DNA of 57,088 nucleotides, the filler included, from Sphacelaria rigidula (taxonomy: Eukaryota): NCBI GenBank assembly GCA_964200075.2. It is 7 parts of 7 records of this genome, joined end to end, with 100 filler letters (N's around TTAATTAATTAA, not from the genome) between each part and the next. Parts side by side here need not be neighbours in the genome. Positions count along the whole stretch, not along the records: positions 24,512 to 32,581 come from CAXNAA020012411.1; 6 more parts are not named here. One strand, 5' to 3'. A program made the position numbers and the translations under genes. The notes below the pieces were generated by a model. That model did no database searches, was not told the origin of the DNA, and saw nothing but the letters and a program-made list of their open reading frames with translations. Positions 2,219 through 52,584 of this stretch are shown piece after piece. Each line of letters starts with the position of its first letter. Position 1 is the first letter of the stretch.

Positions 2219-5200
2219 TCAGTCTGTCCGCGCCTTCTTGCCTGGATGCGGAACATACGAAAAATGTATCATAATTAAAAAAAAAACATGGAACAAGCGC
2301 GAGGATGGTCCGTTATAAAAATAAAATAAAAAGATGGTGAGCTTACGACTGTTTTTTATTCTTCAAGGGGTAACAAAGCCGGTGAGGAAAAAAATGCTGC
2401 AATCTATGTAAATGATACGAGAGGCGCAGCTTCAGCCAACCGTCGATTTGACCGCGCATCCACCACCATCTCATCAGACCCTGGAAGGAACCCCGTCAAT
2501 ACAAGGTGCTCGGTATATTTCCTCGTGAGAAGCAACGATCGGACACAATCGAACGTAATGTATGAAACAGCAAGTCTACCATCAACACGAAGACCCGAGT
2601 ATAACAAGCTTTCGGCATGTTCAACAACAACAACAAAAAATGTAACACCACGACCGCTCAGTGTTCCAAAAAAAGTCAATACGTGCCCTTGTGCATGTCG
2701 TGTGCACCAAACGTCAAGACGATCCGCGCTTAGCCAATGACCAACCCTGTCGTTCATACACCCGTTACTTGCTGCTGGCCACAGCACCACGACAGCAAAG
2801 AGCGCCGTGCCAAAAAGGTTTTGAAAAAAAATCCATAAAGTCATCCAAAACGACCCCGACTAAACCCTTTTGGAAACGTTGATGCAGCCCACCAAAACGG
2901 CGCACCACTCTCAGTACCAGTATACTTATGTGTCAGACTCGTGCACCGAACTCCAAGTGACGTTTCCCCGGTGACGAAAGCTCGCATATGGGAGTTTGAA
3001 AATTGTCATTTTCCATCAAAGGTTTCAAAAGGGTTAACGCGTGGCCGCTAATAAACTCGCAGGCAGCGTCACGTATGTCACCACAGCGGACATGTACGTC
3101 ACAAAGACAAATAGCGAACGATCAAACTCACTTGCAGGTTCTGGCTCGTCGTCATCATCTAGGTCATCCTCTTGTGGGTCATCCAGATCGTCCTGCCCAT
3201 GCTCCTCATCCTCATCCTCCTCATCTTCGTCGTCCTCGTCCCCCCCCTCTCCCGCATCTCCATTCTCTTCTTCGTCCCCGTCATCCTCCTCTCCTTCCTC
3301 ATCACCTGCAACAAAAACGGAGAAAAAAAACGATGATACGCAAAACAAAACAAAAATGACATGACACGTAGTGTTACGCAGCTTCATCATGGTACAAGCT
3401 GGGCCAGCCGTAAAACGTACAAACGCACATCAAACAACAACTTCTCTTGTTTCCCGAATCAGCCGGATTTACGCGTATCACTGTGATCTGCAGACTAACC
3501 TGGTCATGCACGCTCTGCGGCCAAACAAAAGAGGAAAAAATGTACTTCGTAATGTATGACATTAACGACGGAACCAGATTTTGCGAAAAAAAACGATGAC
3601 TTGTCGGAGTTCGAACTCGTGACCTCCACAACTGGACTCTCCTGTATCACTTGACGGGTGCAGCGGTGTCACACAAAAACTGCCAGACTGCGCCCCATTT
3701 GAGGAATTTTCAGCCGAAATTGTACTAGGATCTCCTGCTCGCGAGTACGTGCAAGAGTTTTGGAAACTGCCCCGTTTTTTTTTCTTTCGCGGAGTCATTC
3801 TTCATTTTTCCAGTAGTTTACTTGAAATTTCAAATCGCTCTAAGTTTCCGTTGTTTGGCATCCCGAGAAATGTTGTGGGTGTTGATAAAAGTCGTATGCC
3901 AAATTTCAGCGATTAACGCCTCACATTTAGCACAGCCTGACCCGAAAATATCCAACAATCACCGTCAGCTTGCCCAGCTCGAAGTGCTTCAGGTAAGCGA
4001 GCAGATATTCACAAGTGTGTTTCCACACGTGTTATTTTAGTGAGTGTATGATATGAATTCCAAGCTCAGATGTACCATGATATTGCCGCTCGAGCCCTGG
4101 TGGTGTAACCAGTAAATCGTAGGACTCGGTCAGGGCAGAAATAGGATTCAAGTCCCGGCAAATGCTCTTCTTCCTGTGGAGTATGACTTCGGTCCAGGAG
4201 TATGTGATATCGGTCGTTGAAGAGGGGAGGACGTACGTAGCAAACATTTGACTGAAGTCAAGTCGGTGGTGTAGCGCTCANNNNNNNNNNTCTGCCATAC
4301 CAAAATATCAGGTGTGTCCCGGTGGGAGGTACTCTTTCGTTGCTCGCCTCAGTTTTTTTAACGTGGACTACGCATCCCTTCCGAGACGGAGTACCCGGGA
4401 CAAGATGGGTCAAAAGCTTAATGCTGCGGACTCGTACCTAGGAAGGGGAAGAGTTACACTACAGGTATGACGAAAAATAAGATAATAAAAAAAATAAAAA
4501 TCAGGAGAGGGGGGGCTGTGCGGCAACCAGGAACACCAGGAGACTCATGTTTCGTCTTGACCTCGAGGATCCAGCAACATCAACATCAACAGTAACCGCA
4601 ACAGTGATATCAACAATCAAGACCGACACCAACATTGAAAGTGACATTGACGTTAACACCAACACTACCGGCAGCAACAACAACAGGAAAAAACGAACCT
4701 TCCCCCTCATCGCCTTCATCATCTCCCTCCTCCTCTCCTTCGTCATCCTCTTCATCCTCATCCTCCTGATCCCGTGCCGCCGCTGCCGCAGCTGCCAACG
4801 CCTCCGCCCCGTCGCCGTTCGCGTAATCCTGGGATTTAGACAACACCCACACGTTCCAGGCACGACCATTAATAATTACATTTTGTGTAAACGTATATAT
4901 ACATGTCCATGTATCATGAGTTCGAAGGATTATAATAATCATGACCGGCCGAAACAATCATACTTGGACCCTAGAACTAAATAAACGCACCAGTTGAGCG
5001 TGAATCTTTTTATGGCATGTCCGAAAACATATATTGGTAAACCAGAGGGACCGCAAGGGTCATGCGGTTGTACTGACGTTACTCAAGAGCCACAACCAAC
5101 AAACAGGAGGAGGGAAAAAGGGGGGGGGGGGGAGTATAATTCAAGGCAAAGGCGTCTCCCTCCATTCTTGGGCCTCAAAAGCACCGAGAATTTCGTAAGG

Positions 5201-26370: not shown

Positions 26371-28755
26371 TCAGATCGGGAGTGTCCTGACCCATACAGT
26401 ACTGTTATGCACTTCCCCATAGCATGATGTAGTTTCAAACTCCAGAAGAAATTGCATGAGAAGTGTGTGGAACCTAATGTGTGACCTCTAGCGTGGCATG
26501 ACTCTGCAAGGGTCCTACATCTTCTCCCATCAAGGGGTGGTATACAGCGTGACCTACGGGTGATTCATCGCTTCACTTCGTTGTACAAAGCTTTAACAAA
26601 GACACCCGTGATTGTCGACCATGTACACCGCCAGACAATCTCCAATGCGCCACCTGCATTGTTGTTGCCAAGGGTTGCACAACGTAGTCTGAAATCAACA
26701 GGTATATTATTTGGAAATGGAGAGACTAGTCAGACAGCAGCGTCGTGAGGAGCATCAGCTCAGGGGCCGAATGCGACCCTTGTAGCGTATACACTTACAC
26801 TGCGGTATGTCTAGCAAGCGCGGAGGTCCTGCGGCTGCTACGTCCTACTTCGGTGTGTCATGCAGGACTATCACCCTCCTCAGTGGGAAACGCTGTCCTG
26901 TTGTGGTGGGCCCAAAGGGCCACAGCCTGAAAACGCGGCGGAACCTCCGCTGCGGTTGGCCGGTGTGGAGGCGTGTTTTCCAAACTGGGTGGTGAGTGGC
27001 GAGACTGTGACGTGATCGCTTGAGGCGACATGATCTTTTTGTGGACCTCAACAGGTCGGTTTGAAATAGACGTGGGAAAACTCGAGATATTTTTCGTCGG
27101 GGAGGGTGCTGTAAATTCAGGTAGGGTGGCTTCGTGTACCTGCGGAAATTATCCGCCGTCCGGTCTCGTAGTGTATTGCGAGATATTTTCATTTTCGTTG
27201 GAAAACATCTATCCGACGGTTACAGACGATGATCGACCGGAAAGCTGCACCGGCCACTGGACAACAGACAGTACTTTATGGATAGATATGTCGACATGTC
27301 AACCGTGAATTCCAGTTTTTTCTTGCGTCAGGACCTGAAAACTGTATTGCTAACAACCACGGTGCACATGCACGAGCCATTTGAGAAGGAGGTGCTGTTC
27401 ACCTGCCAACTACTGACAGGGGGAAGGTTGCTATTATTGCGTCAAAATCCGTGCAGTGTATAGATTCGCCCTCAGTTCATTCTGCAACGTCCAAAATTGA
27501 TGTTACGGGTACCCCAGTGCCACCCGTGCCTCTTTCAAGGGTAATCCTTCTTCATCTTAATCGCCCGGGGGTCGTCGGTCTACGTTGGGTTGGAGTTGAG
27601 GTTGGGGTTTGGTTAGTGTTTCGGGTTGACGAGACTGTGTGTGTGTATGTGTCAACTATCGTTCGATGGAGCCGAACTGGCGCGAAACTTCGTCGTACGC
27701 ATGGTCACAGGAAACATGCACAGTTGATCACTGCTTAGGGAGTCCAGATTGTCGGCCAGGTGCTGGGGTAGTTGCAGTCAGTATGCTCTTTGGTATCGTT
27801 CCCCGACGTACGTCCCCGCTGGCTTGCCGCTCGCACCCTCCGCCCTAGGTGACACTAGTCCAACTGGCATCGCGCTTCCTCCGCCTCAGCTGTTTGGAAC
27901 ACAGTGACCAACGAACGGTGAGCACGTCACGTTGTTGCTCGTAGGGGTTGTCTTGCTTCTTATTACAACACAGTTGTAACGTGTGCGCTTGGCTTGTACC
28001 CATCTCCGCGGAGAGAGTTCGCGATGCTTTATGGAGTGTACGGCTCGTGTTATTCCGTTTTGAAAGTCTCGTCGGCGTGTGTGTATGTCAGCCGCACGCA
28101 AGGGGCACTGCCATACTGTGGGTGTACGTTGGGTCCTATTTCGTCGGGTCCCTGGGAGATCGAATATAGTAGTAGTGCACGTTTTCGACTAGACAACACC
28201 GCCGTTGTGTGATTCTCAAGTACCACGCATGAGGGGGGATATACTCTTGCGATGTATGCCACGTCGGTATGAGATGACAAGTCGTTGTGATCCGGTTTGT
28301 CCCGCCTTCTTCATTACATTCTCGACTGCAGCGTAGGCCGTTGACACTGTCTCGGACTGAATATGAGGATGCTGCCCGTCTTTTTGAAGGCTTGTGGGGT
28401 GCAACTGTCTTGGAGATGCTGATCCCACCTGGGACCCGGTACTCCCCCTCAGTGGGCGGTCATCGGATATGACCTCGATCCTGTCATGGTCTGTGTTGCA
28501 TGAGAACGACATTTGGAACCTTTCGCCGATGAAAAGGAACCTCAGCAAGAGGTCGCTAGTACTACCGACACGCGCGCGACACCGAGCGCGTCTATTTCGC
28601 TGACGGAGAATCATTTGCAATGTCTGAGCCCCAGTAGCGTGTATCGGACAGTCGACTACTCGAAGGAAACTCCCACCTTCGTTGCACTTCCCCCTGACCG
28701 ATATGTTTCAAATTTTATCCCCGTTCGGCGTGCTGAACAGGATTATCAGTGCGCC

Positions 28756-30228
28756 ATGTGGTCAGCCAAGAAGATGCTTCTCTGCCTCGTGGGAGCAATC
28801 TCATGCCTGGTCCTGTCGTCCAGTCCCGTGGTAGGAGGTGAGAAAATACGCACTTTATCTCGTACACTCGAGTGTGATGGACCAAGCCGAAGCTCGCAGA
28901 CCTTGTGGTCGCACGCAGACCTTTTGGTGGTCTGACGCGGTTCACATGACTTGTGCTGACTTCCCGGAAGGAAGGAGATCGAAACAATGCTCGAGGAACC
29001 ATGACTGAGGACGGGTACTCGCGAACAAAGAGGGAATGTCAGCCTGCACGGAAGCGGCCATGAGCTCACCTGGAACCGAGTGAGAGGTTGTGCACAGCGT
29101 GGTCCGCGTGGTCCATTGCACGTGCGGAGAGTACGGTCCTGTGCCTCCGACTGTATCCGTTCGCTGCAGCGTGTATGTTCCTTGCTCTTACAGTGTTGTG
29201 CATCCATCTGCTTTTTCCTTGCCATTCCTATATGGCAGAGCCGACGACCGCGACCGTGATGACTCCGGACGCAGCGACTCCAGATGGTGGGGCCCCTTCC
29301 ACAGCGGTGGACCCACTAGCGGCGGCGTCAGCACTCGAGGGTAAGAGGTATTGCATACTTGGTCGCTCTTGTGTTGGACAGATCCGGCGTCGCGTCATGT
29401 CCCCTCAGTCGATGTCGTAAATGCGAATCGCGACCAAGGTTTTCCCACGTGCACAGCGATGGCATCAATCGCGCTCTTTTGTTGGACAGATCCGGCGTCG
29501 CGTCATGTCCTCTCAGTCGATGTCGTAAATGCGCATCGCGACCAAGGTTTTCCCACGTGCACAGCGATGGCATCGATCGCGACGCGAATGCGTCATTCGC
29601 GACGCATGCACGCACACCTACCCTTGGCATGCATTCTCGACTAGGATGTGTGATCGAGTAAAATTCTGGCGTGCGTGCTCGACTGAGGTTGAGTTCATCG
29701 GAGTGGGGCTCCAGTTTTGTCGGGGTGGGTTGTACATGCACAGCTCTCCGAACGCGAATTAGCCCCCTTCGAGTATCGTTCGCGCCTTGGAGAACCGTCC
29801 ACCCGAACTCGACCGTCTCCATACTGATGCACATCGGTCTTGTTACCTCCCCACGCTCACGTGAACTCAACACTAACGCAGGTGACGCCGAGAGGGCACT
29901 CGGCAAGAAGCACAAGGGCAAGAAGGGCAAGAAGAAGCACAAAGGCAAGAAGCACAAGGGCAAGAAGCACAAGGGCAAGAAAGGCAAGAAGAAGCACAAG
30001 GGCAAGAAGAAGCACAAAGGCAAGAAGGGCAAGAAGGGCAAGAAGAGCGATGACTACGATGATGACCACTACGACGATGACGACTACCACTACGACGACG
30101 ACGACTACCACTACGACGACTACGACGACGATGACGACTACCACTACGACTACGATTACCCCTCGTATACTGATTACACAGTCAAGGACTACCCTACCAC
30201 CCACTCCTCCAGCTTCACCTACCGCTGA
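28756..30228 (+). CDS. Secreted Lys/His- and Asp/Tyr-rich diblock protein with RXL motif (176 aa, 3 exons; cingulin/silaffin-like architecture)
   Basis: Exons 28756-28837 (GCC ATG...GGA G|gtgaga), 29239-29340 (ggcag|...GAG G|gtaaga) and 29882-30228 (ctaacgcag|...TGA), all junctions phase 1, total 531 nt. Product: MWSAKKMLLCLVGAISCLVLSSSPVVG-EPTTATVMTPDAATPDGGAPSTAVDPLAAASALEGDAE-RAL-(GKKHK/GKK)n-SDDYDDDHYDDDDYHY...YPTTHSSSFTYR*. Confidence 0.88.
29364..29579. repeat. Intronic tandem duplication, 2 x 108 bp
   Basis: Near-identical units starting CGCTCTT at 29364 and 29472. Confidence 0.9.
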
Positions 30229-32161
30229 GGTCATTCCTCGTATACGCGTCCCGAGGGCGTCGCAACAGCGCTGGCGTGCCCGTAGGCTCGGGAAAGGTGT
30301 CGGTGCGTTGTTGAACGGCACATGGACCCCCGCCTCCGGAATGTTTCACGTGCCCCGTACCTCGTGTAGAAGTTCAGTCGAGTTGCAGCGGTGTGCACGG
30401 GCCGAGACACGGTTCACGTGGCGTCCGTTTTTTGGCACGCACCTCCCAACTACTCGAGTAGGCATGTTGATCTAATGATGGGTCAGTCCGGCTTTCATGG
30501 CCGATGTCCACACGACACCGTAGGTCTTCGTATAGTGTAGATGTCGTCTTGGTGTTTTTTACTTTGATTGCGCTCATGCAGGCCTTTCCAGGTCCTCCAG
30601 TATTTGAGAGTGCCCTTGACTCCGTGGGCCGGGCGTTATCGTGGATGGTGACTGTAAGTTAGGTGTGTTAGGCTCTTGTATTGTATACCCTGTAAATCTG
30701 CGGTCGTCACGGGGTGCCCCCCCGAAGGTATTGTTGCACGTACTTTTTCCGATTGTCCACATTTTAATTCAGAGCAGTTCGGGGAACCACGGTCATGATC
30801 TTGGAGTTCCCTCGTTCCTCACTACCGTTGGGGTGACGAATATCATACATGCCTCGTGCGCGGTTCACTCGTGCTGACGACGGGGTTCCAGCCACGATGT
30901 TCGCTGTCGCGTGAGACATTGCCATGGGCCGATGAGGTCGAGCTCTCATCAGTCCAGAACACCCTCACGACGGTAATGGTCCGGCGTGATGGAAGAATGC
31001 AGTAGTATAAGGCCCACTTCCATGGCCGGCACGAAGCTCGAATTTCTCGTAATTGGGGTTGTGCGAAGGTCGGGGAACGCGTGCCGTGGACACGACTCGT
31101 ACTAAGTCGGGGCCGAAAACTCTGGAGGTGAAGATCTCGGATTGGTCTCCCTCGATTTTCTGGAATCGGGGGAAAACAGATGCGAGATCGTGACCCCGAC
31201 TCCGTTGAGGTGTACTAGCGTACACGTCATGAGGCCAAATATTCTATTCTGCGCTGCGCCGTCACATATTCGACGGCGAGGGACGCCACTGCACTCTCCT
31301 AGCTGTTGTCGCCGCTGTGCTCGACGGGTGATGTGCGGCACTGTACTTTGAACCTCTGCTTGCGTACTGTCCCATGTCATCGCAATGGCGGCCGTGCCGT
31401 CATTAACCACGACACATTAAAATCGATCGTACCAATGGAGTGTCCTATACTACTGTAATGCCCTGGAGTATCGCGGTACGACAACGACACTTTACTCGGA
31501 GGATTGTGCACCTCCTGCCTGCGTACGATAATATGTATATCACAGTACCACACTCATGCATATTACGACCAGCTATGTACGGAACAGCTGCACTGGTCTG
31601 TCATGCTGCCTGTAGCGCCTGTGCCATGAAATGGTCACCCCGATTTTGAGAAGATGAATGACCGTGTCCCCATCTCATCGACATCGGGGCCCGGAAAAAT
31701 TGCGATTCGTTCGTCACGCGAGCGGGTCGCCAAGGGATCCCGATATCAACTATCGAACCAGTACTCGCTCTCCTCCCATCGTACTGTCATTTGCTCATAT
31801 CCAGTCTACCATGCCATCACTTGTGCACATCTACCACAGCCTCCTTCACTTGTCTTCTCCACAACTTCCCAACGTTCATGTGTCCTCGGTTCCAACATCG
31901 TAGTCATCGAGTGTACCTCCTGGACATCTGGGATGCGGGGGATATTTCATCCCATCTCCGTATCCTCATCCTGTGGAGCGTTGAGTTGAGCAGGCAACGA
32001 TGATATTCTCATACTATTTCGTATAGAGACGATTTTGAGAAGATTGGTTTCACTCATCACCGTCACACATCCCTTTCCTTTGAGGTGAAGATGGTGTGTA
32101 GAACCGCCCTACCAACGTGAAATGACAGGTGAAATATGTAGGTGGGAAATGAAAAACATTC

Positions 32162-37587: not shown

Positions 37588-37789
37588 TCACCGCTTCGCT
37601 TTTCCTTTGCCCTTGGCACCCGTCTTCCCCTTATTATTAGTCTTGGCGGTTTTCTTCTTTTTCCTAGAAGGCGGACCTTCGTCGTCGTCGTCATCGTCCG
37701 CTCCTACACCATCCTCCCCGGCATCGACCGCCTCGAGAGGGACGTACTCGCCCAAAGCCTTCAGCAAGCTCGCAGATTCTTTATCGTCC
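37588..37789 (-). CDS. Terminal exon of an unknown, probably nuclear protein (acidic patch plus Lys-rich tail)
   Basis: T-rich intron then cgtag|G GAC GAT...; encodes DDKESASLLKALGEYVPLEAVDAGEDGVGADDDDDDEGPPSRKKKKTAKTNNKGKTGAKGKGKAKR*. Confidence 0.7.
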
Positions 37790-39865
37790 CTACGATGATT
37801 CAAAATAATAAACAAGGAAAACAAAAATAAAAAAATAAAAAAATAAAAAAGGAGATCCAAGTGCACACTAAGTAGGTACCGGGCATAACATATGTGCACG
37901 TACTGTACACAGGAACGATGTGCAACACACGACAAAGCAATTAGTTTTTGATTCGGGAGATAGCACAAACACACACGCGCGCGCGCGCGCGCTAAAATCG
38001 GCCTTGATTCGCAAGCGAAATCGCTCAGAAATCGCCGACACATAAAAACAACGCGCAAGTCATTGATAAATCAGCCCGAAAATAGCGCAAACGAGTCCGA
38101 CTCACGCACGGACAGACAAAGAATTACGACATCTGGAATCTGGACGAAAAAAGCTATACCTTCTCGGACGAATCATGGCCGGTTCTAATCACCATATTCA
38201 CGATTTTTCAGGCATGATTGCTCAAGAAAGAGAAAAAGTAGGTTGACCGATGATCAAAAAGGTCTGATCGCACTTTTTGGGCCATTACACGTACCTGGGT
38301 TGCAACGCTGAAAACAAAGCCTCACGATAGATTCGTACCGTACGAATCAATTAGACTAAAATCAAGTCATTTCCAGACGAATCATTCATCTGACCGACCC
38401 CCGAAAAAGCTCGAACTTTTCGGAGAACCTCCGCAGGAACCAAGACGTTTGTTTTCCTTTTGAAACCCATGACAAACGCGCGGAGGACTTTCCCTATTTG
38501 TGCCGGAACCACCCACAACGTGCAGTGACAACAGGGATGTCTTCTCCAACCTAGCTCGATCATTACCTTCGCGCTGAAAAGTTCGAAAACTGTTCAACCT
38601 CCAACCGCAGTGTATGTACATTGAACCGTTTCACCCTTCAATTCTGCCAGCGTGAATTTACTTTCGAGGACGATCAAGTATCACAGCGACTACAGCATCC
38701 TGATTTTTAGAAACCCGTTTTTTTTCTTCTCCCCAGCGTCATGCGCTTCTCGGCATTATCGGAAACCGCCCACGTCGTCGCTTTTTTTTTTTTTTCATCA
38801 CACAAATGTTACGCTTGCAGAAGAACACCACCAAAAACGCTTCTCCGACACTGTTCATGCATGGATACCATCAGTGTCTGTCGACGTCTCATTGCCTCGT
38901 CAACCACGCATCACCAGTTACTGCATACCTTCAAAGGAAAAAACCGTCGCCGAAAACACACACATATATGTGCATATATCATTTCACATTTTTCACCACT
39001 TTTGCAGAGTTTTCTCTGGCGGCAAGGCATTGTTTCCCGCGCTTTTTTTTGCAGCGCACTAAGAAGGCTCAGCGGAACATTGCCGTTCAGGTTTGGGTGT
39101 CATCTGCTACCTGTGGCGCGTGCTCTGGCCACCGAAAGTCGTTCAAATTTGCCTTTTTTCGCGGGGTGTCGATTCCGAACCACAAACGCTGTTTGATTGA
39201 TTGATTGTCGCACTTTAACTGACCCTCCAGGGGTTCAGCCATGGTCTCATGATAGACGCATCCAAGAAAAACGAAACCGAAACACGCTGTGAGAAAAAAA
39301 GAAGGAACAGAAAGAAAAAAAAAAGGGGGGTCGAACAGAGCGACATCGCAGACAAAGTCGTGACGAAAAAAAAAGAAATAAAAAAGTCAACACGAGCAAA
39401 GAACAGAAAGAAATGGCCGAACTGAATCAAGAAAAAAGGAAAAGAAGAGGGAAGTACAAAGCAAAAAAAATGCAACACAATGAAGATCATGAAAAACTGT
39501 AAACAGGAACCCGAACCACAAAAGCCTGTGGAAGATCATGAAAATCTTGAAAAATACTTCGTGATTACTTTTGGCGGGGTATTTTCCCCCCGTGTTGCTC
39601 TTTGTTGCTTTCTCGTTCATTTGGGAGCACGAACACACCGGTTTTGCCGCCAATGTCACGAGAACATAAGAGCAAAGCAGCTGAAAACAATCGCACATTG
39701 CCTTGACCTTAGTCACCAGCAAACACGAGACCGTGCAATGGGCCGTTGACGAGTTGAACAAGGCACAGCAGCATGGCAGCACAGGTATGTTTTGCCGCAA
39801 AACACAATCACCCTGTTTTGAAGAAAGGCCCGGTGATGCGGAAGTCACAGTGATGTGCAATCGTT

Positions 39866-50684: not shown

Positions 50685-52584
50685 CATATGACAGACCGCG
50701 GGCACTGCAAGCTGCTCTACGAAGAGGGTGAAGATTTGCATGAATACGAGAATTTCTACGACTTTTCTGCCTCCTACACCGAGGCCGAACAAAACGGTAT
50801 CGTGAGGAGGGCCACCTCGGACGCGACAGCAGCAGCAGCGGGTGCGTGCACCTACGAACGGAACGGAACCGACAAACTGGACGGCGAGATGATATCTGAT
50901 GAGACCGATGATGACGACGACACAGATGGTGATGACCACGTCGAGGTTTCGAAGACTTTGAGCGTTACTGATCTTGGAGAGCTGGTGCTGCTAGATGGGA
51001 AGACGGTCGGTAATCGGCAGTGGCGGCGATACTATCGACAGCGGTTGAGAGCACCCGATGAGCGAGAGGTGGTGGTTGCCCAGCATAGGGCTATGAGATT
51101 GCGTCTGGGAGCTATGTACGATGAGGAGGTACGCGGAGGAGGCGTGTTTTTTGCAGGAGAAAAATGGCGACTTTTGCGTATTTTTGGAACAATTTCGACC
51201 TCCTTCCTAACCCTAAATATGTTGCATTTGGCCTATTCAACCCTGTCGATGCGAGTTGGATATATTATAATCGGGTGCTCGATATACTCCTCTTTTCAAA
51301 AGGGAATGAGCAGGGGGCTTGCTATCATTTATGACGATGCTGCCAACGATGTAGTTTTTGCAAGTCGTTATGCGCGGTATCAAAACTTGAAATGATAACT
51401 CGTGCGAGTTAGCCCCCCTAGGAAACTGCTCTCGTCGTACCAGTAAGGTATGATATGTGTGGTCAGGCGTGATATTCATTCTACGGACAACGACTGTGTT
51501 TGTCTCGTCCTTCCCCCCTACATGCAAACGACGAAGGCAAGCGACAAATGAGTACTACCCCCCCTCCCCCACTTACATACGTACACACAAATATACGAGG
51601 GAGAGGTGGGATGATCCCTTGTGATGATGGACTCGTCCCGAGGAAGGGGAGAGGTTGAAAGTGTTGACGAGAGCAATGCATGCGTACGCACAAACGTGGA
51701 TGCGTACATGAGTGCACGGAAATAAGGTGCAGACAGGTGGGAGCGCCAGAAGGAAAAATCCAATGAAACGGATTCATTTTGCTCCTGAGCTACTCGCCTC
51801 CTTACAGGGTGGGCGTGACACGACTAGCCAATGGAAGCTAGGCCTATCGGATATCTCGTAAGGTTGATTCATCTCAGATATACGATTTTTCAAATAAATG
51901 TCGCCTCCCCCCCCCTCCCCATTCCCAGTCATTATCCAGGAATATAATGTTGAGGGTTATCTGAACATTCCGAACCTGTTGCGCAATACTCCTTCGATAT
52001 TTTCATGGTCGGGTTAGTCGTTTGCATTGATATCGCGTACCCTACTTCGAATAATCGATAGAGTAGTACTCTATTTACTCCATGATCTGAAGGATCTTGA
52101 CGTGTGGGCCGACGCTGCGGTTCGTAAGTTGAGACTGGAGGTGTAAACTGAACCTCGTTTGGTATGCCGATGAGCGGTACCTGGCGCACGCCCCCACCTC
52201 GCTTTTTACATATTCTTTGTTGTTGTCACACTGGGTATGAATTTGATTGTGCCGTCGCTACGTGTCTGTAGCTATGCCATGTACTGTTGGCAATGTTGAA
52301 AATGTACTCTACAATCCGCAGCTCTCGAGGTTTAATCCCCCTCCTCTCCCACTCGTGGAATATTGGATCGAAACACCCAGGTAAAAAAGGGCACTTCAAC
52401 GGGCGGCGCAGTAGCGCTACAGCGAGGTCAGCGGAAGGCCTACGGGGGACTGTCCGGGGTGGCACGACCCAAGGACGTGAAGATGCTGAGGGCGCATCAA
52501 CGGCGGGAGGCTCGCGAGTCCCTCAAGACGGGCCTAAGGCAAAACAAGCTCAACAAAACGTTCGACAGGGTCGCGGACATGTAA
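50685..52584 (+). CDS. REI1: Cytoplasmic 60S ribosomal subunit biogenesis factor REI1/ZNF622, last two exons (5' part not in this scaffold)
   Basis: Exon 50685-51128 (ttgcatag|...GAG|gtacgc) carries the family motifs HMTDRGHCK, EYENFYDFSASY and ELVLLDGKTVGNRQWRRYYRQR. Phase-0 terminal exon 52381-52584 ends ...LKTGLRQNKLNKTFDRVADM*. Confidence 0.92.

Follow-up and report, generated by a model that had tools for sequence, protein, structure and literature searches.

Gene structure and transcripts

The window analyzed here, a stretch of 57,088 nucleotides made of seven joined parts of the Sphacelaria rigidula assembly GCA_964200075.2, contained at 28756-30228 the coding part of a single-copy, four-exon gene with a spliced mRNA of about 1.2 kb (all coordinates are those of the whole window, plus strand). 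The gene encodes a protein of 176 amino acids in which a block of Lys, Gly, and His directly precedes a block of Asp, Tyr, and His, behind an N-terminus that fits a cleavable signal peptide. Three coding exons (28756-28837, 29239-29340, and 29882-30228) are joined at GT-AG borders into a coding sequence of 531 nt that ends in one terminal stop codon. They lie in three separate stop-to-stop open reading frames (ORFs; 28504-28935, 29064-29420, and 29662-30228), which bears out the statement of the first-pass annotation of this DNA that the ORF track splits the gene.

The first exon (27864-27917) is non-coding and ends in the donor G/GTGAGC (the slash marks the exon border), with the transcript start at or upstream of about 27864. 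It is followed by intron 1, which lies within the 5' untranslated region (UTR) and spans 823 nt (27918-28740, GT..AG). Exon 2 (28741-28837) carries 15 nt of 5' UTR, the ATG at 28756, 27 signal-peptide-like codons, and the first base of the codon for Glu28. Intron 2 (28838-29238, 401 nt, GT..AG) runs from the donor G/GTGAGA at 28837/28838 to the acceptor CAG/ at 29238, and intron 3 (29341-29881, 541 nt, GT..AG) from the donor G/GTAAGA at 29340/29341 to the acceptor CAG/ at 29881. Both coding introns are in phase 1, with GAG (Glu28) as a split codon. Exon 3 (29239-29340) contributes 34 codons of an Ala/Thr/Pro/Asp spacer, and the last exon holds the remaining coding sequence up to the TGA at 30226-30228 and a 3' UTR of about 560-580 nt (30229-30806), in which the contig of run X12 ends at 30784 and that of run X10 extends about six letters beyond 30800. 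The first-pass annotation had described three exons, the first of them ending with the codons for Val-Val-Gly exactly at the intron. The three coding exons and the place of these codons stand, but the exon end lies one base later, and a further exon, non-coding and 5' of the others, has to be added, with its end at 27917.

A list of 19 public runs was obtained for the locus (17 with part and nine with at least half of the sampled words; eight studies), and assembled contigs were aligned from four of them, namely X1 and X5 from organism A and X10 and X12 from organism B (one sample, one study), with X5 belonging to another study than X10 and X12. No run is annotated as RNA, and X5, X10, and X12 were treated as RNA only for GT..AG joints that are absent from X1; the contig depths given below are rough and not normalized. 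X1 was DNA-like, with an even depth of 140-147 across exons and introns and no joints. X10 and X12 each provided one contig of about 1.15-1.18 kb that joined 28837 to 29239 and 29340 to 29882. The first coding junction was also present in two X5 contigs, while the second appeared in X5 as loose ends at 29342 and 29881 reading into the adjoining exon. Because the junctions were found in RNA contigs of two studies and none in the DNA-like run, the gene is real, spliced, and transcribed, and the confirmation of both coding junctions that the first-pass annotation had proposed is thereby provided. A retrocopy or a DNA-level deletion was ruled out, since the joined form is absent from X1.

The X10 and X12 contigs contained 54 and 48 additional letters upstream of 28740, respectively. 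A 30-letter consensus of these letters was identical to window positions 27887-27916 (0 mismatches, with 0.00 chance matches expected), and the gene has four exons because the transcript contigs carry this upstream exon ending at 27917. The 69 known bases of the 5' UTR include no ATG, and the ATG at 28756 is the first of the known mRNA. In addition, one X5 contig at 28407-28782 (depth 945.6) continued without a splice from the 3' part of intron 1 into the exon with the ATG, as could result from an alternative start or promoter or from intron retention; upstream ATGs would be present in such an isoform.

In X5, a unique 3' UTR contig reached a depth of 11,102, compared with 5-17 for intron contigs, and the transcript contigs of X10 and X12 had depths of 31 and 14, respectively. 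These results indicate that processed mRNA is far above pre-mRNA and that levels may differ strongly between samples. Relative to the window, organism B showed one additional in-frame AAG (Lys) codon after 29904, the sole length difference between organisms A and B, together with three substitutions in the 3' UTR. Organism B is thus nearly the same organism and hence uninformative as an ortholog. Another X5 contig (depth 173.8) had C instead of A at 29239, changing Glu28 to Ala, and may represent an allele or an assembly variant.

The DNA depth in X1 over the Lys block (147) equaled that of the flanks and no paralog lay within the window, in agreement with a single copy. X1 depth rose to 5,312 over the Asp/Tyr-coding repeats at 30064-30147 and to 224-357 over a part of the 3' UTR (30484-30735), compared with 147 in the flanks; simple repeats like those at 30064-30147, and perhaps a dispersed element too, are present elsewhere in the genome. 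The coding sequence itself had a one-sided codon choice (AAG for 31 of 34 Lys, CAC for 11 of 11 His, and TAC for 14 of 15 Tyr) and a GC content at third codon positions (GC3) of 0.80, against an overall GC content of 0.49 in the window. At the DNA level, the Lys block consists of in-frame tandem repeats with periods of 15, 27, and 57 nt, and the Asp/Tyr block of in-frame tandem repeats with periods of 18 and 21 nt. Intron 3 also contained a tandem repeat, a 108-bp unit present 2.0 times at 29364-29581 with 96% matches, over which an X5 contig differed by two substitutions (29511 T>C and 29534 C>A).

Features of the predicted precursor

The N-terminus of the protein has Lys5-Lys6, a hydrophobic core of 15 residues (residues 7-21), and Ser-Ser-Pro-Val-Val-Gly before Glu28. 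With Val-Val-Gly at positions -3 to -1, the predicted cleavage after Gly27 fits the -3/-1 rule, and the hydrophobic core is not long enough to cross a membrane. These features fit a cleavable signal peptide, predicted at about 27 amino acids, and the product is probably secreted. The signal peptide proposed in the first-pass annotation agrees with the positively charged N-terminal region, the hydrophobic core, and the putative cleavage site.

The following spacer (residues 28-62: nine Ala, six Thr, five Pro, three Asp, three Gly, and two Glu) is acidic and contains no basic residue before the sole Arg of the tripeptide Arg-Ala-Leu (RAL). Plastid import in stramenopiles follows a rule that expects an aromatic residue after the cut; plastid targeting was rejected, given the acidic spacer and the lack of an aromatic residue after the predicted cut. 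The last exon starts with Gly-Asp-Ala-Glu-Arg-Ala-Leu (29882-29901), in which RAL occupies residues 66-68 (codons 29893-29901) and is the sole RXL of the protein, placed directly before the Lys block. The first-pass annotation had read it as a processing site. The tripeptide is indeed in this position, but it stands alone, and an RXL arose by chance in 7.1% of shuffles of the 41-residue segment before the block and in 1.1% within five residues of the block. The single RAL is therefore weak evidence for processing and could be due to chance. In oomycetes, proteolytic processing at RXLR has been reported (PMC11754927), and by analogy a stramenopile-wide RXL protease is conceivable.

The polycation block (29902-30045) comprises 48 residues, namely 31 Lys, 11 Gly, and six His. 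Lys makes up 65% of it, Gly and His being the sole other residues, and it contains neither Ser nor any hydrophobic residue and shows 20 overlapping K-x-x-K spacings. The polyanion block (30046-30159) comprises 38 residues, namely 22 Asp, 11 Tyr, four His, and one Ser, and is followed by a Tyr/Thr/Ser/Pro tail of 22 residues and the stop codon (30160-30228). The block compositions given in the first-pass annotation, and its Glu-Arg-Ala-Leu directly before the Lys block, matched exactly. The boundary between the blocks reads KK-S-DD and holds no processing motif, and Ser accounts for 6.8% of the whole protein. All 11 Tyr residues of the acidic block have at least three acidic residues within five positions on either side, and for 10 of them this stretch is free of basic residues, which is the kind of context preferred by tyrosine sulfotransferases.

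The chain after RAL (108 residues) contains 33 Lys and Arg, 24 Asp and Glu, 11 His, and 15 Tyr residues, so that 53% of it is charged with a net charge per residue of +0.08. The charge-patterning index kappa was 0.62, compared with a mean of 0.146 and a maximum of 0.254 among 200 shuffles, and the segregation of charges is far from chance. AlphaFold2 modeling of the last coding exon gave a predicted local distance difference test score of 62 and a predicted template modeling score of 0.14, without any secondary structure, and on this model the product is predicted to be intrinsically disordered.

Host, relatives, and comparable proteins

The host was assessed from a second gene in the window, the only other one that could be recognized. 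Exons at 50685-51140 and 52372-52581 (plus strand), the last two exons of a gene for an REI1-like pre-60S factor with C2H2 zinc fingers, matched a protein of Ectocarpus with 56% and 79% identity, respectively. They matched two EukProt proteins with 54-58% and 74-84% identity, and a Nannochloropsis protein with 36%. The exons for the N-terminal portion of about 260 residues were not found in the window by tblastn. Because the REI1-like exons match Ectocarpus best, the host is, judged from these exons, a brown alga or a close relative and not a diatom, which answers the concern of the first-pass annotation that the scaffold might be diatom contamination.

Relatives of the protein were sought in several ways. 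A word-indexed HMMER search with the last coding exon scored 3,939 candidates, of which none reached E<=1e-3 and two reached E<=10. One was a metagenomic protein of 150 residues (P0011) with a KKHKGKK-type run followed by an acidic Ser/Asp run, and the other was a 68-residue fragment (P0012). P0011 has no signal peptide, and both were judged unrelated. A phmmer search against 1.84 billion representatives gave no hits, the ESM Atlas gave no usable match, and a peptide-pattern scan of metagenomes returned 584 pattern matches with none confirmed. A degenerate DNA pattern across the junction of the Lys and Asp/Tyr blocks found 15 metagenomic loci, none of which had a signal peptide together with long blocks; they consisted of short Lys-patch/acidic-patch segments within unrelated reading frames of bacteria and eukaryotes. 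Short cation-then-anion junctions also occurred in unrelated frames of five of these loci (L002, L004, L005, L014, and L015). No Pfam family matched at E<=0.01, and the four matches at E<=10 were of low complexity, the best scoring 14.2 bits against a cut-off of 30.2. The best match in PDB (E 0.085) was to charged linkers of nuclear proteins. No ortholog or paralog was found in the proteins and metagenomes searched, a result that does not prove relatives absent, as the composition correction of HMMER is harsh on such sequences and brown-algal genomes were not among the DNA searched. Likewise, the literature searched, which did not include the supplementary tables of the Phaeoexplorer preprint, yielded no paper describing such a brown-algal protein or its motif strings.

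Proteins of comparable layout are known from diatoms. In a review of diatom silica-associated proteins, RXL is regarded as a likely general processing motif of their precursors, and KXXK clusters are described as typical of silaffins and cingulins (PMC4557024). The precursor of Sil1p from Cylindrotheca fusiformis carries an RXL motif on the C-terminal side of the signal sequence (PMC4557024), and the parallel that the first-pass annotation had drawn with this layout fits the account in the review. Like Sil1p and tpSil of Thalassiosira pseudonana, the protein described here appears to be a low-complexity precursor that enters the secretory pathway of a stramenopile, in which a putative signal peptide is followed by an RXL and a Lys-rich peptide with K-x-x-K spacings (PMC4557024). 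In the silaffins as described there, however, the Lys residues stand among phosphorylated Ser and the protein is bound to biosilica, whereas Ser is absent from the Lys block here and an encoded Asp/Tyr block supplies the negative charge. Moreover, no sequence similarity to silaffins was found, and the host is brown-alga-like.

The cingulins CinY and CinW of Thalassiosira pseudonana have a signal peptide, which in the present protein is predicted, and share with it Lys clusters, Tyr-rich regions, RXL, and repetitive low complexity (PMC4557024, PMC9650480). In CinY1-3, a conserved motif comes after the signal peptide. According to the same sources, cingulins alternate KXXK regions with Trp- or Tyr-rich regions (PMC4557024), and their Lys regions follow K(S/G)nK (PMC9650480). 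The present protein instead has one dense Lys/Gly/His block and one Asp/Tyr/His block without alternation, and the spacers in its Lys region are Lys, Gly, and His. Silacidins are described as phosphopeptides rich in Asp, Glu, and Ser, with repeats that RXL processing sets free and that are phosphorylated on Ser (PMC4557024), while the acidic block here contains a single Ser among its 38 residues and is not flanked by an RXL. Thus, the silaffin/cingulin-like architecture assigned in the first-pass annotation fails as a statement of membership, given the Lys block without Ser, the lack of alternation, and the acidic block without RXL. From the sequence comparison, the protein resembles the silaffin/cingulin/silacidin group in layout and perhaps in working principle, without being a member.

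In composition, the Tyr/Lys-rich proteins AC3362 and AC714 of the adhesive diatom Amphora coffeaeformis, which were themselves found by composition and not by homology, are similar in having a signal peptide (predicted in the present protein), high Lys and Tyr contents, KG repeats, a modular build of low complexity, and almost no Arg (PMC4220933). Unlike the present protein, they are larger, Pro-rich, and not separated into one purely cationic and one purely anionic part, and AC3362 is a biosilica-associated wall protein (PMC4220933). These secreted Lys/Tyr-rich proteins with KG repeats are the closest analogues by composition.

The cement of sandcastle worms contains Lys/Gly/His/Tyr-rich polycations and a phosphoserine-based polyanion as separate proteins packed in secretory granules. 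The likeness to this cement is one of working principle and not of family, since here both charges are on one chain of 108 residues and the anion is Asp. Coacervation of the sandcastle-worm type is mentioned as a proposed route of wet adhesion in PMC4220933, where coacervation is also raised as a route of adhesion that needs no Dopa (3,4-dihydroxyphenylalanine). Precursors of linear cationic antimicrobial peptides consist of a signal peptide, a cationic part, and an anionic pro-region removed by proteolysis (PMC7387483), and the order of parts and the roughly balanced charges are the same here. In contrast, the cationic part made of Lys, Gly, and His only is not amphipathic or helical in the AlphaFold2 model, and no cleavage motif lies between the blocks. 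Lys-rich arabinogalactan proteins have a long Pro/Ala/Ser/Thr glycomodule, a short Lys-rich insert, and a C-terminal glycosylphosphatidylinositol (GPI) signal. This class was rejected, as the spacer is only 35 residues long with five Pro and the C-terminus is polar, with no hydrophobic GPI signal. Taken together, secreted polyionic low-complexity matrix proteins are a known kind, and the unusual feature is that both charges occur as near-pure blocks on one short chain in a brown-alga-like host.

Possible functions and surroundings of the gene

We tentatively favor, at a probability of roughly 0.4, that the gene encodes a disordered polyampholyte that is secreted and works through its charge in the wall, mucilage, or adhesive, a function that we infer from the features above. 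Diatom wall proteins rich in Lys and Tyr with KG repeats, and Dopa-independent coacervation as a route of adhesion, set a precedent for it (PMC4220933). The precursor would consist of a signal peptide of about 27 residues, an acidic Ala/Thr/Pro spacer, RAL, a Lys/Gly/His polycation, an Asp/Tyr/His polyanion, and a Tyr/Thr/Ser tail, and after entry into the secretory pathway it would act outside the cell through its charge blocks. In vesicles, the blocks of the same chain and of different chains could neutralize one another, while low pH would protonate His, allowing dense packing. In seawater, the Lys block would exchange to denser polyanions such as alginate carboxylates and fucan sulfates, and the Asp/Tyr block might bind Ca2+ or Mg2+ or the Lys blocks of adjacent chains. 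Tyr, His, and Lys would then be free for cation-pi contacts and oxidative cross-links. Cleavage at RAL, the binding partners, condensation, and cross-linking are purely what we infer, and the same holds for the coacervation, the binding of alginate or fucoidan, and the shared ochrophyte RXL system put forward in the first-pass annotation.

Several points weigh against a charge-based extracellular role. Purely electrostatic complexes of blocks of about 40-50 residues are weak near the ionic strength of seawater, and the Lys block is full of KK pairs that secretory proteases could cut. In addition, both blocks are plain in-frame tandem repeats, as in young and possibly functionless genes, and the depth of the transcript contigs was low in organism B. 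Finally, because no ortholog or paralog was found, nothing shows that selection keeps the architecture or RAL.

The repeats also lead to a different view of the locus, a young, lineage-restricted gene born from repeat expansion, whose diblock product is transcribed and perhaps translated without a specific selected function. Both blocks being tandem DNA repeats, the difference in codon length already present between two near-identical organisms, the absence of relatives across the searches, and the abundance elsewhere of repeats like the Asp/Tyr-coding stretch (X1 depth 5,312 at 30064-30147 compared with 147 in the flanks) agree with such an origin. Nevertheless, four cleanly spliced exons, a signal-peptide exon in phase with the repeats, the codon bias (GC3 of 0.80), the high depth of X5 exon contigs, and blocks that are compositionally pure and sharply bounded make this explanation rather unlikely. 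We regard as similarly doubtful a precursor of a secreted, Lys/His-rich polycationic defense or antifouling peptide, freed by processing at the thallus surface, in which the Asp/Tyr block would be the anionic pro-region. The order of parts is typical of linear cationic antimicrobial precursors (PMC7387483), the charge is near balance (33 Lys and Arg against 24 Asp and Glu, plus 11 His), and contig depth, as a rough measure, was very high in one set of runs and low in another, which would suit an induced gene. A cationic block without hydrophobic residues and without a helix in AlphaFold2 is, however, not expected to be amphipathic and membrane-active, the KK-S-DD boundary offers no processing motif, and 38 residues with 11 Tyr among them go beyond what a simple counter-ion would call for.

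Two further roles are less probable still. Asp-rich runs are common Ca2+ binders in biominerals, and the protein could handle minerals or ions in the matrix, through local deposition of silica or calcium carbonate or through buffering of Ca2+ or metals in the wall. In diatoms, pairs of a polyamine or polycation with a polyanion (long-chain polyamines or silaffins with silacidins) drive silica precipitation (PMC4557024). Biogenic silica has also been reported at wounds and sori of the kelp Saccharina japonica (PMC3434887), and the premise of the first-pass annotation that the organism is a non-silicifying stramenopile is accordingly too strong. Yet nothing ties the host to mineral deposition, the Lys block lacks Ser as a target of phosphorylation, and the protein searches, which covered diatom and other algal data, turned up no relatives, so that a mineral role seems improbable. 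Disordered proteins rich in Lys, His, and Pro bind polyphenols strongly, and the signal-peptide features would also suit a packaging protein retained in the endomembrane system (physodes or secretory vesicles), complexing phlorotannins or sulfated polysaccharides before their release. According to the Phaeoexplorer preprint, physodes carry the phlorotannins, which become cross-linked in the wall (10.1101/2024.02.19.579948). A retention or sorting signal was not recognizable in the protein, though, and the data do not separate packaging from plain secretion; we consider retention a distant option.

If the favored reading of an extracellular polyampholyte is correct, its wider meaning concerns brown-algal walls and adhesives, which are usually pictured as made of alginate, fucans, phlorotannins, and haloperoxidases and of which, to our knowledge, few protein components are known. 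It is a highly speculative thought, to which we give little credence, that brown algae possess a "two-part glue in one chain". In such a system, diatoms and brown algae would have an RXL-type protease in common, perhaps with a link to the processing of oomycete RXLR proteins, and this protease would release a self-complementary polycation-polyanion that condenses when triggered by salt, pH, or Ca2+. The product would be the protein, long missing from the picture, that pairs with alginate, fucans, and phenolics when walls are assembled, in adhesion, or in the sealing of wounds, or else a template for the silica reported at kelp wounds. If this were true, polyionic RXL-processed matrix proteins would predate diatom silicification. 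More generally, a transcribed and probably secreted chain with a near-pure polycation beside a near-pure polyanion is a clean natural test case, accessible to peptide synthesis, that could reveal how charge blocks behave at the salinity of seawater. Orthologs, if they exist and keep RXL, would link secretory processing in brown algae and diatoms, while an orphan without function would neatly illustrate how a gene can arise from in-frame repeats that follow a signal-peptide exon.

The rest of the window was scanned with Pfam on 145 of its 192 ORFs of at least 85 amino acids, with the gene's own ORFs and some duplicates that overlap others set aside; one of the 145 had a match, which was sub-threshold and of low complexity, and the scan gives no functional context for the gene. 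Two low-complexity charged ORFs without a family match were present on the minus strand, one at 3034-3429 that is rich in Asp and Glu and one at 37591-38070 that ends in a Lys/Gly/Ala-rich part. Runs of N (568 in the window) occurred at about 7.7-8.6 kb and 15.6-16.3 kb, flanked by G/C homopolymer-like stretches that translate into poly-Gly and poly-Pro, and are probably assembly gaps in simple sequence.

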